A DNA stretch of 64,000 nucleotides from the NCBI GenBank assembly GCA_934153945.1, contig CAKPFM010000003.1:3831-67830 (forward strand), in the 5' to 3' direction. The first letter of the stretch is position 1. Every line of letters begins with the position of its first letter. The notes under the pieces were generated by a model, which saw nothing but the letters and a program-made list of their open reading frames with translations, was not told the origin of the DNA and did not search any database. A program made the translations under genes and the position numbers. Below, in pieces: positions 12,042 to 35,973 of the stretch. The stretch comes from an uncultured Bacilli bacterium. GTDB taxonomy: Bacteria > Bacillota_I > Bacilli_A > RF39 > UBA660.

Positions 12042-14069
12042 TTATTCATCATCAGCAAAGAAATCGTCAAAAAATTGATCATCAGTAACTTCTTCTTGTT
12101 TAAATTTTGGTACTTCTGGTTCTTTTTCTACTTTTTTATTTTCTTCTTTTAATTTTTCTTGTCTTTCTTCTTCTTCTAATTCTGCTATTTTAGCATCTAT
12201 TCTTTTTACTAAATCATCAAAATTATTATTAGGTTTTGATAAGTTTGGTCCAAAAGAATCATTTTTTTCAAAAGGATTGCCATTTTCAAAAGGATTGAAA
12301 GGCATATTTGGCATTTTAGGCATATCACTACCTAACATTTCATCTATCTTTTTTTGTCTTTTTTCCTCTACTACTTTTTTAACATCAAATAGGTGAATTT
12401 CTTGTTTTTCTCTTTTTGGATATGAGGCTTTAGGATAATTTTTTCCCCACATGCCTTCTTTATCCATTTTCCAAGCAGGAACCATTTTTGTTTTAAATGG
12501 CATTTCCCTAGTCCTTAATATAACCATAGTATACATTGGTAAACGTTGTAAGTCTGATACCGTTACAAGTGGAGTTGAAGCAGTTTTATCATCTTTCTTA
12601 GATTTAACTTCCCCACACATCTTACTTATTTCTTCTAAGGCTGATAACTCTGAACTTATTAAATATATCCAGTTACCACAGTTTCCTTTGATTGTATCTC
12701 CTTTTTCTTTGCCATATACATCTGATAATTGAGCAAAGTTTTGAATAATAAATGTAAACCTTATTAATCTTGAACGAGCAGCAGTTACCATTGCATCTGC
12801 ATCTTTTAAAGGAGGCATATTTGCAAATTCATCTAGTATAAAGTTTGTTTTAAATGGCAATTTACCACCATTTTCAAATGCTACATCTACTAATGTTTCA
12901 TAACATTGTTTTACAAATATAGTAGCAAGTGGATGGTACGTTTTCTTTTCATCATGTATGATTATAAATACTGCTGTTCTTTTTTTACCAATATCTTTCA
13001 TATCAAAATCACTATGAGATAACATCTCTGATAAGTTTTGTTTTGATGAGAATAGTTTTATTTTTTGTTTAAATACTGATAAAATACTTCCTTTAGTATC
13101 TGCCGGTGCCATAAGTGTACTAGCAACATTTATATAGGCTGGTGAAGATTGATCTTTATCACTAAAGTATTCTTTCATGATAGTTGTTCCACCGATTTTT
13201 TCTTCTCCAACTGTTGTCATTAAGTTAATAGTATTTAAGTTTATTTCTTCTTCTTTAGCATCTTCAAATAAAGCTAAAGCTAGTCCTGTAAAGTAGTCAG
13301 CTGATGTATTTTCCCAGAATGGATCTTGTCCCTTACTTGATTCATCATATAGGATATTTTTTGCTAAATCGTCTAATAATTCTGTTGCTTTATCAACATT
13401 TCCATCTTTATATAAACTATATGGCAATGTTAATGGGTTCCAACAATTGCCATTTTGTGGATTACGGAAGTTTAATAATACTATATTGTAACCTTTTTCT
13501 CTTAATTCTTCTGCATTTCTTTCATATATTTCACCTTTTGGATCGGTAATAATCATTGATTCACCAGCTTTTGCTAATGTTTTTACCATTGGTTGAACTA
13601 TACTTTCCGTTTTACCAGAGGCTGTAGAACCAATTACTAGATTATGCCATTCTCCAGCATCTACCCATATTTCTTTTCCATTATTTATCAATGGAACACC
13701 AGCATATGTTGTACTCTCTGCTCTAGGATCTATTTTTTTTAGATTTTTTTTCATTTCTTTATCAGTTGCCCATCTTGAGTAACCTTTTTCTTTTTTTGGA
13801 GCAGTTGATATTCCAAAACCTTTTTCTCTATCAAAGAAATATGATGAAACACTTGTAAAGACTAAAATTAGTATTGCAAGATATACAATCATTGTTAAAG
13901 GAAATAAATTCTTTTCAAACGCTGGAAGTGGATTTATACCAGTTAGTTCTGTTCCACCAACTAATGCCATAACATTACTTACAGCTATAGCTATAAAAAA
14001 TAGTAAAAATAGTGCGAATATTATAAATATTAACCAATCTCTAGGCTCTGCTCTAAATTTTAATTTCAT
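12042..14069 (-). CDS. VirD4/TraG-family type IV coupling protein
   Basis: N-terminal TM helices, Walker A GSTASGKTES, a TDPKGE motif, and an acidic C-terminal tail (EEVTDDQFFDDFFADDE) typical of T4CPs. Confidence 0.85.
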   Translation of the reverse strand: MKLKFRAEPRDWLIFIIFALFLLFFIAIAVSNVMALVGGTELTGINPLPAFEKNLFPLTMIVYLAILILVFTSVSSYFFDREKGFGISTAPKKEKGYSRWATDKEMKKNLKKIDPRAESTTYAGVPLINNGKEIWVDAGEWHNLVIGSTASGKTESIVQPMVKTLAKAGESMIITDPKGEIYERNAEELREKGYNIVLLNFRNPQNGNCWNPLTLPYSLYKDGNVDKATELLDDLAKNILYDESSKGQDPFWENTSADYFTGLALALFEDAKEEEINLNTINLMTTVGEEKIGGTTIMKEYFSDKDQSSPAYINVASTLMAPADTKGSILSVFKQKIKLFSSKQNLSEMLSHSDFDMKDIGKKRTAVFIIIHDEKKTYHPLATIFVKQCYETLVDVAFENGGKLPFKTNFILDEFANMPPLKDADAMVTAARSRLIRFTFIIQNFAQLSDVYGKEKGDTIKGNCGNWIYLISSELSALEEISKMCGEVKSKKDDKTASTPLVTVSDLQRLPMYTMVILRTREMPFKTKMVPAWKMDKEGMWGKNYPKASYPKREKQEIHLFDVKKVVEEKRQKKIDEMLGSDMPKMPNMPFNPFENGNPFEKNDSFGPNLSKPNNNFDDLVKRIDAKIAELEEEERQEKLKEENKKVEKEPEVPKFKQEEVTDDQFFDDFFADDE

Positions 14070-14081
14070 TTTATTTCCTCC

Positions 14082-14696
14082 TTACAATTTATTACTTTCT
14101 TTATTTTTATTATTAGCAATGTAATATATTAAACCACCTATTATTAATATTCCTAAAAATAATATTATCATATAAATATAGTCATAGTTTTTAATATTTT
14201 TATCTATTTCAAAATATATTTCTGCATTATTAACATTTTGATCATCAATATACCAATAATATGTATTATTTTCTACTTTTGTAGCATTATGATCTATTAC
14301 TTTATGATTTGTGTTTATTTTTATTTCTAATTGATCATATGTTACTACATCAAAATCACTATATTGATATGGATAACATTTAAATTTTTTACCTGTCCTT
14401 ATTGTATAAGTATTTTCAGTACTTTGAATATTATAACTATCAAAGCAAGTTAACAAAGTACTTTTTTTATAGTTGTCCAATAAATAATCGGAACTATATG
14501 TTACTATATCATTTTCTATTGTTTTAATATAGTTTGAATTAGATATATTAATTAAATCTGCATTTACTGGTATATTTGATGTAACACCATTTATTTTTAA
14601 TGTTTCATAAATTTTGTTGTTTTGAATTGATAATTCATAGTTACAGCTACAGCCAGTTAATAATATTAACATTAATATAGTCATTATTTTTTTCAT
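14082..14696 (-). CDS. lipoprotein with C-terminal TM helix (T4SS-associated, function unknown)
   Basis: MKKIMTILMLILLTGCSC lipobox. Hydrophobic segment near the C-terminus. Confidence 0.5.
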   Translation of the reverse strand: MKKIMTILMLILLTGCSCNYELSIQNNKIYETLKINGVTSNIPVNADLINISNSNYIKTIENDIVTYSSDYLLDNYKKSTLLTCFDSYNIQSTENTYTIRTGKKFKCYPYQYSDFDVVTYDQLEIKINTNHKVIDHNATKVENNTYYWYIDDQNVNNAEIYFEIDKNIKNYDYIYMIILFLGILIIGGLIYYIANNKNKESNKL

Positions 14697-34336: not shown

Positions 34337-34389
34337 ACCATCCTCTCTAACATATTATAACACAATTAACACTAAAACAAAACAATTTC

Positions 34390-35973
34390 TTATTTTAAAA
34401 TGTAAACATATGACATATTACGTATTTTTATTTTAAATTTAATTTCACTAGCATCGATAATACTTCTTGGAACTTCTAAATATACAACATTCTTATCCAC
34501 TGTTTTTGTTGGTAATATTTCGTATAATTGATTAACTGTATATTCTTTATCATTTAAATTATAAATAATACTTCCAAATTTTTCAAGTAAATAATACAAT
34601 TTTTGAGGTTTTAATATAGATAAATTTTGATCTATATTGTAACTTCCAGTAATTTTAAGCAATGCTTTATCATAATTCGTGTTTAATTTAGGACTAATAA
34701 TTTCATGTGATAATCTACATTCATTTGAAACACAAAAGTTATATGAGACATCAAATGAATTAGATAATTCATAACTATAAATATTAATACTTGAATTTTT
34801 AAATATACTTTTTTCTAATGAAATATTGTCATTTAAATTAAAATAGTTTTCTTTAATATCCTCATCTATCTTATTAGGATTAATTTTTACTTTAATTGTT
34901 TTTAAATTTGTATCAAAATAATAAATTAACATTTTAGAATCAACATAACTGTTTGGAATCTTATATATTAATAAGTATTCACTAAAAGCATTGGAAATTT
35001 CATCATTATTATAACTAATACCTAAATCAGAAAATTCTGTTCTATAATCTGTTGTAGGATAAATATTGTGGTCATTAACATGCAAAGCTATTTGAGCAGT
35101 AGATAATATTTTATTCTTAGAGTTTATAGTTCTAACCTTCACTCTACTAATAACAAATGAATAATTTTTATCAATGACATTTCCTCTATAGTCCTTATTT
35201 GTTACATAACTTTCAACTATATTAAAATAGAAATCTTTTGTTGTTAAATTTTCATTTTCTTTATAAACCTTATTATATATTGTTTGATTTAAATAAATAA
35301 TAATACATATAATTCCAATTAATAAAGCTGATATAATTGAAAACAAATACTTATTTTCAACATATATATACTTAATATATCTAAATACTTTATTTAATTT
35401 TCTCAAAAATTTATCATTATCTAATTCAAAACTAACTTCAAATTCTTCACTATCTTTTTCATCAATATCAAGTTCTTCTAAATCTTTAGCAAAATCAAAT
35501 TTTTTAATATTGAATCCAGTAGCTCTAATGGCAGTCATAATACAAGTTATACTTTGAATTAAAATGGTCATCAAAACCAAATCTTGTATTAATTTTAAAG
35601 TTCTAACTTCAACTAATGAAATTTCAAGAGTACTTAAAGTATTTCTTGAAATAATAATTATTGTTACAACAAAAATATAAGCTAAAATATTAAAAAAGTA
35701 ATATTTAACAGGTTTCTTTTTAAATAACATTACAAACAAAATTACTATTGTAAATAAAAATATAAAAAATATTGATACAAATAATAAATTACTATATAAA
35801 GTAGTAATTACTTCATGATTAATAAGTACCATTGTACTGTTTAAATATTCATTTAAATATGATAATATGGCACTACTGGAATACATGACATATATCATAA
35901 ATAATAGCATTATAAAATGAAATAATTTAAAATGTTTGATAAAAAAAGCAAACGGTCTTCTTAGTATCATCAC
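34390..35973 (-). CDS. polytopic membrane protein with large C-terminal extracytoplasmic domain (first gene of the operon, unknown)
   Basis: 5-6 N-terminal TM helices, an acidic cytoplasmic loop, a further TM, then about 300 aa of beta-rich sequence. Confidence 0.5.
   Translation of the reverse strand: MMILRRPFAFFIKHFKLFHFIMLLFMIYVMYSSSAILSYLNEYLNSTMVLINHEVITTLYSNLLFVSIFFIFLFTIVILFVMLFKKKPVKYYFFNILAYIFVVTIIIISRNTLSTLEISLVEVRTLKLIQDLVLMTILIQSITCIMTAIRATGFNIKKFDFAKDLEELDIDEKDSEEFEVSFELDNDKFLRKLNKVFRYIKYIYVENKYLFSIISALLIGIICIIIYLNQTIYNKVYKENENLTTKDFYFNIVESYVTNKDYRGNVIDKNYSFVISRVKVRTINSKNKILSTAQIALHVNDHNIYPTTDYRTEFSDLGISYNNDEISNAFSEYLLIYKIPNSYVDSKMLIYYFDTNLKTIKVKINPNKIDEDIKENYFNLNDNISLEKSIFKNSSINIYSYELSNSFDVSYNFCVSNECRLSHEIISPKLNTNYDKALLKITGSYNIDQNLSILKPQKLYYLLEKFGSIIYNLNDKEYTVNQLYEILPTKTVDKNVVYLEVPRSIIDASEIKFKIKIRNMSYVYILK

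Follow-up and report, generated by a model that had tools for sequence, protein, structure and literature searches.

A co-oriented Tad-like and type IV secretion gene string in uncultured gut Bacilli as a probable domesticated relative of Gram-positive conjugation machines

We analysed a 64,000-nt stretch (the window) of contig CAKPFM010000003.1 from an uncultured Bacilli bacterium of the RF39 lineage. In it, 21 consecutive minus-strand open reading frames (ORFs), here g01 to g21, run from position 35973 down to 12042 when read with translation table 11. The first twelve resemble a Tad/Flp-type pilus assembly module and the other nine the core of a Gram-positive conjugative type IV secretion system (T4SS). 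We believe, with a probability of roughly 0.6, that this locus is fixed in the chromosome, vertically inherited and without a relaxase, and that it descends from a class of monoderm conjugation machines whose transfer operon includes the Tad-like module as an integral component. Among the plasmid members of the class are Bacillus thuringiensis pBMB68, the Bacillus pLS20 family, Enterococcus faecium p32 and a Mycoplasmatota plasmid. The two-module plasmid machine class as such is already known; what is notable here is its domestication across a whole lineage and the Tad-like, VirB11/CpaF-driven module that the chromosomal copies expose.

Two modules of one gene string and their plasmid relatives

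The ORFs of the string follow one another closely, the distances from g01 to g21 being 53, 10, 11, 5, 2, 10, -1, 134, 15, 9, 12, 83, 102, 15, 15, -26, -11, 22, 3 and 12 nt (range -26 to 134 nt). This agrees with an initial annotation of the same DNA, which had described 21 co-oriented minus-strand genes with short gaps or overlaps. The core-gene flanks named there were also found in place. On the side of the VirD4 gene (g21) lie genes for a rhodanese, a ComGC-like pseudopilin, PGK and an LPG-synthase-type membrane protein, and on the g01 side an ecfA-ecfA-ecfT-truA cluster is divergently transcribed. The G+C content is ~25% across the window. Promoter-like sites together with larger gaps occur at the g08/g09 and g12/g13 boundaries; since the count of promoter- and terminator-like sites in the window is not above a shuffled background, operon sub-structure is only suggested. 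Genetic code 4 was considered for the window and rejected because every ORF is intact with table 11.

A tblastn search of PLSDB with VirB4 and the secretion ATPase led to conjugative plasmids of Firmicutes, and hidden Markov models (HMMs) of the window families were run against a database of ~100 sequences. In the B. thuringiensis plasmid pBMB68 (NZ_CP010581), the T4SS genes lie in one orientation and encode a MobP3 relaxase, VirD4, a TrbL-family protein, a PrgI-family protein, a 227-aa ORF, VirB4 and an NlpC/P60 hydrolase. Next come genes for surface proteins and for proteins with a DUF5411, a SAF and an AAA (AAA_31) domain, then those for a T2SS/T4P/T4SS ATPase, for two proteins without annotation (316 and 297 aa; matching the polytopic g07 and g08) and for a DUF4320 protein. 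Eleven window families (g04-g08, g11, g12, g16-g18 and g21) match the positionally equivalent pBMB68 proteins at E-values of 6e-4 to 9e-91. The individual values not given in Table 1 are 8.5e-91 for g18 with VirB4, 4.7e-88 for g21 with VirD4, 4e-42 for g06 with the ATPase, 8.9e-38 for g05 with the SAF-domain protein, 3.9e-22 for g17 with the 227-aa protein (h227), 2.2e-11 for g08 with the 297-aa protein (h297), 5e-10 for g07 with the 316-aa protein (h316), 5e-8 for g04 with the DUF5411 protein and 6e-4 for g12 with the AAA protein. Similar B. thuringiensis plasmids of ~64-68 kb (for example NC_009841) gave near-identical VirB4 matches. As in the locus, both modules of pBMB68 are co-oriented, the VirB4 N-domain is a detached ORF, a large surface protein is present and two polytopic proteins follow the ATPase. 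Unlike the locus, pBMB68 carries a MobP3 relaxase, a primase and replication functions, and its module order is inverted, with the T4SS first. Its hydrolase is of the NlpC/P60 type, whereas that of the locus combines SpoIID and CHAP domains, and its VirB6 has 285 aa compared with 899 aa in the locus.

The gene order of pLS20-type plasmids is 36, 37 ('VirB11'), 38, 39, 40-45, 46, 47, VirD4, extended VirB6, 50, 51, VirB4, VirB8-like and hydrolase. Genes 36-54 are collinear with g04 and g06-g20 except that VirD4 lies elsewhere and that the hydrolase and its neighbouring gene are ordered differently. Collinear with the locus, the pLS20 plasmid has an adhesin, the DUF5411-like gene 36, the membrane genes 38 and 39, an extended VirB6 (906 aa) and gene 50 with two transmembrane helices, and its gene 51 (192 aa) has the same position as g17. 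Family HMMs matched the pLS20-type 'VirB11' (g06, 2e-50 to 5e-54), VirB6 (g15, 1.5e-5), gene 39 (g08, 6e-5) and the gene-36 equivalent (g04, 7e-5), and g07 gave a pLS20 match of ~1e-3 to 2e-4. No CpaB-like or TadZ-like protein was detected in pLS20-type plasmids, whereas the locus has both. In addition, pLS20 has a MobL/MobP2 relaxase and regulatory modules and places VirD4 before VirB6, while the locus is without a relaxase. In the paper on the pLS20 family, gene 37 is called VirB11 and genes 36 and 38-47 are listed as unknown, both gene blocks belong to one conjugation operon, and Gram-positive elements are said to make no conjugative pili (PMC8557374). By gene tables and reciprocal positional matches, the locus has the collinear set of a pBMB68/pLS20-type conjugation operon, made up of the ATPase, a pair of membrane proteins, small proteins, VirB6-like and VirB3-like proteins, split VirB4 and a hydrolase.

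E. faecium p32 encodes this ATPase with its pair of membrane proteins and small proteins, and a VirB2-family gene comes next; the g08 and g04 families matched its proteins e265 and e140 at 5e-6 and 7.5e-4, respectively. The plasmid of Mycoplasmatota bacterium zrk4, a cold-seep isolate (CP074574, L138, 98 kb), has at 15094-37041 T4SS genes and, directly after them, a canonical Tad set with genes for SAF, AAA, CpaF, T2SSF and Flp pilin proteins. Its pilins carry the Flp motif (G/SPSLEY and G/GVIFEY), and the g15 family matched its protein m408 at 6e-6. The zrk4 plasmid also encodes a 1650-aa protein, and its MOB-suite type is non-mobilizable. It may be an intermediate that links canonical Tad loci to the divergent module of the locus.

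On conjugative plasmids, or within T4SS regions of plasmids, from four lineages, the two modules lie together in one orientation. Because these plasmids carry both modules, the two-module architecture belongs to a pre-existing class of monoderm conjugation machines. This does not bear out two statements of the initial annotation, namely that Tad and Gram-positive T4SS genes were not known together, with no described system of this content, and that the locus was a new fusion or hybrid. The eleven families matched in pBMB68 and the collinearity with pLS20 genes 36-54 speak against them; the locus is better described as a domesticated copy of an existing, poorly described class. Conversely, since the CpaB, TadZ, DUF5411 and ATPase genes are well preserved in the locus, the block of 'VirB11 plus unknown genes' in pLS20 and its pBMB68 counterpart may be read as a Tad-like type IV filament module.

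Conservation across the lineage and absence of mobility signals

The ATPase scan covered one genome per GTDB species, and the best 80 genomes were fetched. A close relative of the g06 ATPase was present in at least 580 species genomes, and the protein is 77-95% identical among the best 80 species. Using tblastn with all window proteins, we found g01 to g18 wherever the contig allowed, in identical order in the 16 loci for which the order was listed, here and there interrupted by cargo (L028, L081). From metagenomes, a scan with VirD4 yielded 50 loci in which g12 to g21 are collinear and accompanied by the rhodanese gene. Because the order recurs among species and metagenome loci, the 21-gene arrangement is not due to chance. 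The pilus-like and T4SS halves, whose co-occurrence the initial annotation had proposed to check, never occur apart in ~130 loci.

The genes of the string differ in their rate of change. Across the lineage, motor proteins share ~75-85% identity; the values for g06, g07, g08, g17 and g18 are 70-82% (median 80% for g18). The DUF5411, CpaB-like and TadZ-like proteins are 59-66% identical, and g01-g03, g10, g11 and g13-g15 31-43%. Locus identity follows that of linked housekeeping genes: the VirD4 and PGK identities are 90 and 86% in L087, 84 and 80% in L089, and 66 and 71% in L114. This parallel argues for vertical descent rather than recent spread.

The surroundings of the locus consist of housekeeping genes that differ among species. 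As read from the sequences, RmuC, RNase R, rplI (L9)-dnaB and gpmI (phosphoglycerate mutase) genes lie downstream in other species, and ScpA/ScpB, PflB/PflA, RluD-like and CotJ genes upstream. No relaxase and no tyrosine or serine recombinase was found in the window by Pfam searches, which scanned ORFs of 80 aa or more, with E <= 1e-5 for the outer ones, and tblastn with MobP2, MobP3, TraA, topoisomerase and primase gave nothing in the window and 136 related loci (2.17 Mb). There is no tRNA gene in the window, and no boundary repeats were found around the locus. The varying housekeeping flanks and the lack of relaxase, integrase, tRNA and boundary repeats support a chromosomal and non-mobile locus, in line with the initial annotation, which had noted the missing relaxase and integrase and drawn the same conclusion. 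The features of a self-transmissible element, that is, a relaxase in cis, an integrase or excisionase, attachment repeats, a tRNA insertion site and variable presence, were not observed in the stretches searched.

A window protein is present identically on 23 metagenome contigs; the six places shown have the same context, with human gut (Hadza) samples among them. The records of related genomes carry the labels uncultured Bacilli, Tenericutes or Mollicutes, with Candidatus Fimihabitans placed under Mycoplasmatota. A circular contig of 1.2 Mb represents one related genome. The window encodes a PBP5-type carboxypeptidase, an amidase, a glucosaminidase and BacA, a gene set that predicts a walled host.

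Components of the two halves

The genes are listed in Table 1. An HMM check of the protein assignments made in the initial annotation upheld VirD4, VirB4, the hydrolase, the ATPase as a member of the CpaF/VirB11 group and the CpaB-like and TadZ-like proteins, and it agreed with the VirB3/PrgI-like and VirB6-like proteins at scores below curated thresholds. It did not confirm the GspF-like TadB/TadC proteins, which gave no T2SSF match.

Table 1. Predicted genes of the string and the adjoining rhodanese gene, with positions in the window
Gene	Predicted product	Length (aa)	Position	Strand	Basis
g01	Several N-terminal hydrophobic helices, large non-cytoplasmic domain	527	34390..35973	-	66 loci, median 36% identity
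g02	Signal-peptide-like N-terminus, C-terminal membrane anchor	214	33692..34336	-	69 loci, median 36% identity
g03	Secreted Cys-rich protein	1119	30322..33681	-	48 loci, ~32% identity
g04	DUF5411 protein, N-terminal membrane helix and globular domain	133	29909..30310	-	Pfam DUF5411 4.7e-54
g05	CpaB/RcpC-like (SAF-domain) protein	275	29076..29903	-	TIGR03177 pilus_cpaB 1.9e-8, Pfam RcpC 1.7e-5, both below curated cut-offs
g06	Hexameric secretion ATPase, CpaF/VirB11/FlaI group	359	27994..29073	-	Pfam T2SSE 2.9e-25, above cut-off
g07	Polytopic membrane protein, candidate TadB-like platform subunit	301	27078..27983	-	Follows ATPase
g08	Polytopic membrane protein, candidate TadC-like platform subunit	261	26293..27078	-	Median identity 70%
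g09	Candidate major filament subunit	63	25967..26158	-	One hydrophobic helix, Cys-containing tail
g10	Minor pilin-like, MK/R-E-x-I-G leader and hydrophobic helix	151	25496..25951	-	N-terminal conservation
g11	Minor pilin-like	152	25028..25486	-	Family HMM with pBMB68 DUF4320 1.1e-4
g12	TadZ/CpaE-like	333	24014..25015	-	N-terminal receiver-like and C-terminal ParA/MinD-fold domains, degenerate Walker A (KNVTKQSGATT)
g13	VirB2-like 'T4SS_pilin' (weak), small membrane protein	118	23574..23930	-	PF18895 6.8e-3, below cut-off
g14	Signal peptide, Cys-rich ectodomain, C-terminal T4SS_pilin-like hairpin	289	22602..23471	-	PF18895 1.2e-4, residues 200-264 (weak)
g15	Extended VirB6-like polytopic protein, long low-complexity coiled-coil tail	899	19887..22586	-	Pfam TrbL_4 1.6e-5, below cut-off
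g16	VirB3/PrgI-like, two membrane helices	107	19548..19871	-	Family HMM with pBMB68 'PrgI family' 2.1e-6, Mycoplasmatota m138 6e-11
g17	Detached N-terminal (TraC-like) VirB4 domain	185	19016..19573	-	NCBIfam VirB4_plasma positions 100-276, 9e-16
g18	VirB4 ATPase domain	594	17242..19026	-	Pfam AAA_10, P-loop_TraG, DUF87, all above cut-off
g19	Membrane-anchored bifunctional wall hydrolase	839	14700..17219	-	Pfam CHAP 4.9e-14, SpoIID 1.3e-9, both above cut-off
g20	Lipoprotein (lipobox LLTGC), C-terminal membrane anchor	204	14082..14696	-	29 loci, ~31% identity
g21	VirD4 coupling protein	675	12042..14069	-	Pfam T4SS-DNA_transf 6e-56; intact Walker motifs, acidic C-terminal tail
	Single-domain rhodanese, active-site CRSG	98	11686..11982	-	Pfam Rhodanese 1.9e-18

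In the T4SS half, g21 is unambiguously predicted to be VirD4 by its match to the NCBIfam CD1115-family VirD4 (1.5e-89), whose score of 300.9 passes the cut-off of 250; a terminator-like hairpin (pattern match) follows it at 12056-12034. For g18 the best NCBIfam models are Mbov_0397 VirB4 (VirB4_plasma; 7e-108, positions 294-891) and the CD1110 family (2e-51), and by profile score its nearest relatives are the VirB4 proteins of Mollicutes integrative and conjugative elements (ICEs) and Bacillus plasmids. The VirB4 ATPase of the initial annotation is present, but not as one gene: the Mycoplasma-ICE VirB4 model is covered jointly by the three ORFs g16 (positions 4-83, at 0.052), g17 and g18, that is, a VirB3-like protein, the N-domain and the ATPase. 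The precomputed Pfam match of g17 is to the TraC-like family PF26593. The split between g17 and g18 is kept in every species examined (58 loci). The same split, into an N-domain ORF of ~185-227 aa and an ATPase ORF of ~600-630 aa, is seen in pLS20-type and pBMB68 plasmids (L137, L140, L141). A frameshift artefact was considered and ruled out, given that the split recurs on plasmids and in every species of the lineage; the split is predicted to be an ancestral trait of this machine class. For g15, NCBIfam gave Mycoplasma ICE transmembrane families at 2.8e-5 and 1.6e-4. The VirB6-like and VirB3-like matches of g15 and g16 are mutually consistent, and none reaches a curated threshold.

Two proteins left without an assignment in the initial annotation, g13 and g14, carry weak VirB2-like T4SS_pilin matches. 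PF18895 was matched in 11 of 37 scanned members of their families, at best at 1.2e-4, and g14 weakly matches the NCBIfam Mycoplasma ICE families MMCAP2_0566 and Mbov_0396. Extra g14-type paralogues lie between VirD4 and rhodanese in some species. Six loci (L092, L095, L098, L101, L103, L124) have at least one extra large secreted protein of ~350-670 aa at this place, and the one representative read, a 654-aa protein of L092, ends in a T4SS_pilin-like membrane hairpin as in g14. These may be surface proteins anchored by VirB2-type hairpins, in a set that varies among species and recalls the expansion of VirB2 paralogues discussed for Patescibacteria, Bartonella and Anaplasma. The hydrolase g19, found in 21 related loci, is by its domains a putative VirB1/CwlT analogue, with a SpoIID lytic-transglycosylase-type domain and a CHAP peptidase. 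The position of g20 is roughly that of VirB8-like proteins; its single sequence and its family profile gave no informative family or structure match in Pfam, NCBIfam and PDB. Of the parts of a monoderm (MPF-FATA-like) T4SS, this half has predicted VirB4 and VirD4 proteins and a dedicated peptidoglycan hydrolase.

In the pilus-like half, g06 has Walker A, Walker B and His boxes. It matches the NCBIfam VirB11 (3e-32) and TadA-type (TIGR03819, 1e-27) models, both below cut-offs, and is about equally close to CpaF (1.7e-18) and VirB11 (4e-18) in PDB; its nearest relatives are the plasmid 'VirB11' proteins. Its 359 aa compare with mostly 440-490 aa in orthologues, the extra residues being apparently C-terminal, after the matched region. 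CpaB/RcpC and TadZ/CpaE accessory proteins of Tad systems are both represented, by g05 and g12. The single g05 sequence had no match in PDB; a Pfam scan of each g12 family member gave nothing, and the g12 profile gave nothing useful against PDB. The DUF5411 protein g04 is a putative pseudopilin-like accessory protein.

The position of g07 and g08 after the ATPase, their size and their topology fit TadB and TadC. Neither they nor their distant homologues gave a T2SSF match, and no family or PDB match was found for the two. The g07 profile search gave 292 matches, mostly fragments, with seven long homologues (213-301 aa) and three other long hits without T2SSF. In hhalign, g07 and g08 are unrelated beyond the N-terminal helix, and tblastn of both, with 72,556 plasmids as targets, gave at best E ~0.4-0.8 or no match at all. 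Among the plasmid counterparts, Pfam detected T2SSF only in the Mycoplasmatota plasmid protein. A low-confidence model of the g07/g08-type platform candidates bears a weak fold resemblance to PilC and EpsF domains.

The small proteins g09, g10 and g11 have a short leader with a conserved Gly at position 6, then a hydrophobic helix, and are without the Flp G/XXXXEY motif and without a +5 Glu. The N-terminus of g09, MKEAAGEANMTV(I/V)(T/A)I(I/V)LI, is almost invariant in 62 loci. A hairpin-plus-T run (26294-26271) and a promoter-like site (26224-26196) lie 5' of g09, both consensus matches only. A repeat finder showed the 5' ends of g09, g10 and g11 to be in common and a 59-nt repeat common to g10 and g11 (D1, D3). 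It appears from the N-terminal pattern, this DNA repeat and the shared plasmid matches that g11 resembles g10. The g10 family HMM matched E. faecium e120b (0.011), pBMB68 DUF4320 (0.017) and pLS20 gene 40 (0.04), which are weak values in a small database. No A24-type prepilin peptidase (TadV/CpaA) was found among the window ORFs scanned. A 179-aa ComGC-like protein with the prepilin N-terminus MKKGFTLVELL and an N_methyl motif is encoded at 11067-11606, between rhodanese and pgk, and implies a prepilin peptidase elsewhere in the genome; its homologues occur at that position in only 4 related loci.

The three genes at the start of the string encode surface proteins, and g01 orthologues are always its first gene. 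Pfam searches of g01, g02 and g03 and their orthologues (21 orthologues for g03) gave no match, nor did NCBIfam searches of g01 and g02. By its position alone, which is that of the pLS20 adhesin Tie (gene 34), the SpaA-like protein of E. faecium p32 and an 851-aa protein of pBMB68, g03 is a candidate adhesin. At the other end, the rhodanese gene is a housekeeping-side neighbour, as annotated before, but more than that. In 25 of the 32 loci with a downstream flank its place is next after VirD4, with or without intervening VirB2-like paralogues, and the genes beyond it vary among species. With promoter-like and terminator-like sites on both sides, it is probably a separate transcription unit. 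This conserved neighbour stands beside a locus with many Cys-rich surface proteins.

Other features of the window and of related loci were also recorded. Spo0A (receiver and Spo0A_C domains) is encoded at 5103-5867, and CotJB/CotJC-like genes, recognized by reading the sequences, adjoin the locus upstream in L025, L052, L059 and L069; genes of this sporulation type thus occur in organisms to which the labels Tenericutes or Mollicutes are often given. An IS110-family transposase gene (DEDD_Tnp_IS110 and Transposase_20) lies at 56655-57815, 20 kb from the locus. A PD-(D/E)XK 'transposase' (PDDEXK_2, Rpn-like) is encoded at 5999-6922, away from the locus, and the ORF at 42271-43173, not adjacent to the locus either, resembles it by look, with no Pfam match at 1e-5. 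An Abi_2 gene (46687-47622) and a gene for an AAA_14/DUF4143 ATPase (48424-49611) are also present. An ATPase that by eye resembles the latter is encoded at 14808-16007 of L028, within a 4.4-kb cargo insertion between g08 and g09, which indicates that this gap tolerates insertions. At 58050-59708 a 552-aa secreted protein is encoded whose C-terminal region is repetitive and rich in Asn; it carries a C-terminal membrane anchor and has no Pfam match at 1e-5. An Rfam scan of the window gave no riboswitch and no other RNA element.

Proposed function and comparison with known systems

By analogy with what has been proposed for the chromosomal T4SS of Patescibacteria, we infer that the machine may have been co-opted for a core contact-dependent function, because its motors are 75-85% identical and 24 kb are kept in genomes as small as ~1.2 Mb. 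In such a machine, the SpoIID+CHAP hydrolase would open the wall, and the VirB6-like, VirB3-like, split VirB4 and VirB2-like proteins would form the membrane channel. The CpaF/VirB11-type ATPase, g07, g08, the CpaB-like protein and the TadZ-like organiser would build a short filament or piston from g09 together with the minor subunits g10 and g11 and the DUF5411 protein g04. The large, fast-evolving surface proteins g01-g03 would bind the partner cell, and VirD4 would pick cytoplasmic cargo, either protein or DNA presented by a trans-acting or other processing factor, for contact-dependent export. Export is favoured over uptake because VirD4 is intact and highly conserved. A bolder proposal, to which we give rather little credence, is that the machine is the obligatory cell-cell interface of an order-level lineage of uncultured small-genome gut Bacilli, serving attachment and macromolecule exchange as a Firmicutes counterpart of the Patescibacteria epibiont T4SS. 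Its corollary would be that the pLS20/pBMB68 class builds a Tad-type filament driven by 'VirB11'.

Several points weigh against descent from a conjugation class with an integral Tad-like module. The plasmid matches of g10, g11 and g12, and of g07 with pLS20, are modest, and the E-values refer to a database of ~100 sequences. The identity of g07 and g08 as TadB/TadC platform proteins is unproven. Filament formation can only be surmised because neither of the two processing signatures, the canonical Flp motif (G/XXXXEY) or a Glu at +5, is present in the small subunits. The searches covered 64 kb and the 10-kb flanks of relatives, so that other parts of the genome could encode a relaxase or prepilin peptidase. 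Finally, the high identity of the ATPase across species could in principle result from recent horizontal spread; the strong divergence of the surface genes and the co-divergence with the flanks argue against this.

The most serious alternative, though clearly the less probable one, is that the locus is still an apparatus for DNA conjugation or chromosomal exchange within the lineage, with VirD4 fed by a relaxase encoded elsewhere or by a relaxase-independent route as in Mycoplasma chromosomal transfer. Every plasmid relative is a conjugation system, the VirD4 belongs by score to the conjugative CD1115 family, VirB4 is closest to the Mycoplasma ICE family, and chromosomal transfer systems using VirB4 and a type IV coupling protein have been reviewed (PMC12857230). 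Against it stand the absence of a relaxase from the window and the 136 related loci and the order-wide retention of motors with 80% identity, which is unusual for a selfish function. It is unlikely that a Tad-type adhesive pilus and a T4SS merely lie side by side as independent systems. The larger gaps with promoter-like sites at g08/g09 and g12/g13 would fit such an arrangement, as would the Tad-like clusters without T4SS in gut Firmicutes (PMC11680825, PMC9523054); however, the number of such sites does not exceed the shuffled expectation, the halves stay together in ~130 loci without exception and co-oriented on plasmids of four lineages, and in pLS20 they form one conjugation operon (PMC8557374).

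A DNA-uptake (competence) machine like Helicobacter pylori ComB or archaeal Ced/Ted, for which there are precedents (PMC12102498, PMC12857230), is improbable. Such a machine could be chromosomal, relaxase-less and conserved, and small genomes could profit from import; yet the locus has a conserved VirD4 coupling protein, which ComB is without, and the separate ComGC-type gene suggests a conventional Com apparatus. An ordinary ICE with relaxase and integrase just beyond the window, suggested by gene content typical of a transfer module and by the IS110 transposase, is largely refuted by housekeeping genes on both flanks here and different ones in other species, the lack of tRNA and boundary repeats and of a relaxase in any related locus, the identical context in same-species contigs from six samples and a base composition without a sharp break.

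The locus also resembles several other known systems. Mycoplasma ICE families are the best-scoring NCBIfam models for its VirB4, VirB6-like and pilin-like proteins, all below curated cut-offs. These ICEs are mobile via a DDE transposase and are not known to carry a CpaF-type module. With Tad/Flp pili and Firmicutes Tad-like clusters the locus shares the CpaF-family ATPase, CpaB-like, TadZ/CpaE-like and DUF5411 proteins, two polytopic proteins and small proteins with a hydrophobic N-terminus. It differs in having no detectable T2SSF, no G/XXXXEY motif and no prepilin peptidase in cis, in an ATPase as near to VirB11 as to CpaF, and in always lying within a T4SS string; the clusters described without a T4SS are those of DUF5411, CpaF and PilC in Clostridia (PMC9523054) and, in the gut order TANB77, a conserved Tad-like one (PMC11680825). 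Partnerships of a T4SS with a type IV pilus are established in Gram-negative bacteria, for IncI R64 and PAPI-1 (PMC12857230, PMC12102498). The R64 thin pilus and PAPI-1 resemble the locus in concept, since a type IV filament machine is encoded with a T4SS and promotes mating-pair formation, but they belong to Gram-negative bacteria, their pilus is of type IVb and has a prepilin peptidase of its own, their genes lie in two separate clusters, and they are mobile elements with relaxases.

According to a 2025 review, no Gram-positive T4SS has a VirB11 homologue, and VirB2 pilins are likewise missing outside Patescibacteria (PMC12857230). The locus and its plasmid relatives contradict the statement on VirB11-type ATPases. 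If the pLS20/pBMB68 class indeed builds a Tad-type filament, the textbook view of Gram-positive T4SSs without VirB11 and pili would be overturned, and the filament question in Gram-positive conjugation is testable with pLS20 in the genetically tractable B. subtilis. No account of this locus turned up in a literature search, incomplete in coverage, that paired RF39 and related names with T4SS, pilus or competence. A parallel to it exists in Patescibacteria, where a chromosomal, mostly relaxase-less MPF-FATA T4SS with T4SS_pilin genes has been read as co-opted (PMC12102498). Both systems are monoderm-type, chromosomal, mostly without relaxase and lineage-wide, with VirB2-like genes, in small uncultured genomes (PMC12102498, PMC12857230). 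The Patescibacteria system belongs to another phylum, no integrated CpaF/Tad-like module has been reported for it, and its type IV pili are encoded in separate loci. The present locus would thus be the second case, after Patescibacteria, of a conjugation-type T4SS fixed as a chromosomal organelle of an uncultivated small-genome lineage, this time within Bacillota/Mycoplasmatota of the human and animal gut, and it points to a contact-dependent lifestyle that might explain the resistance of these bacteria to cultivation.

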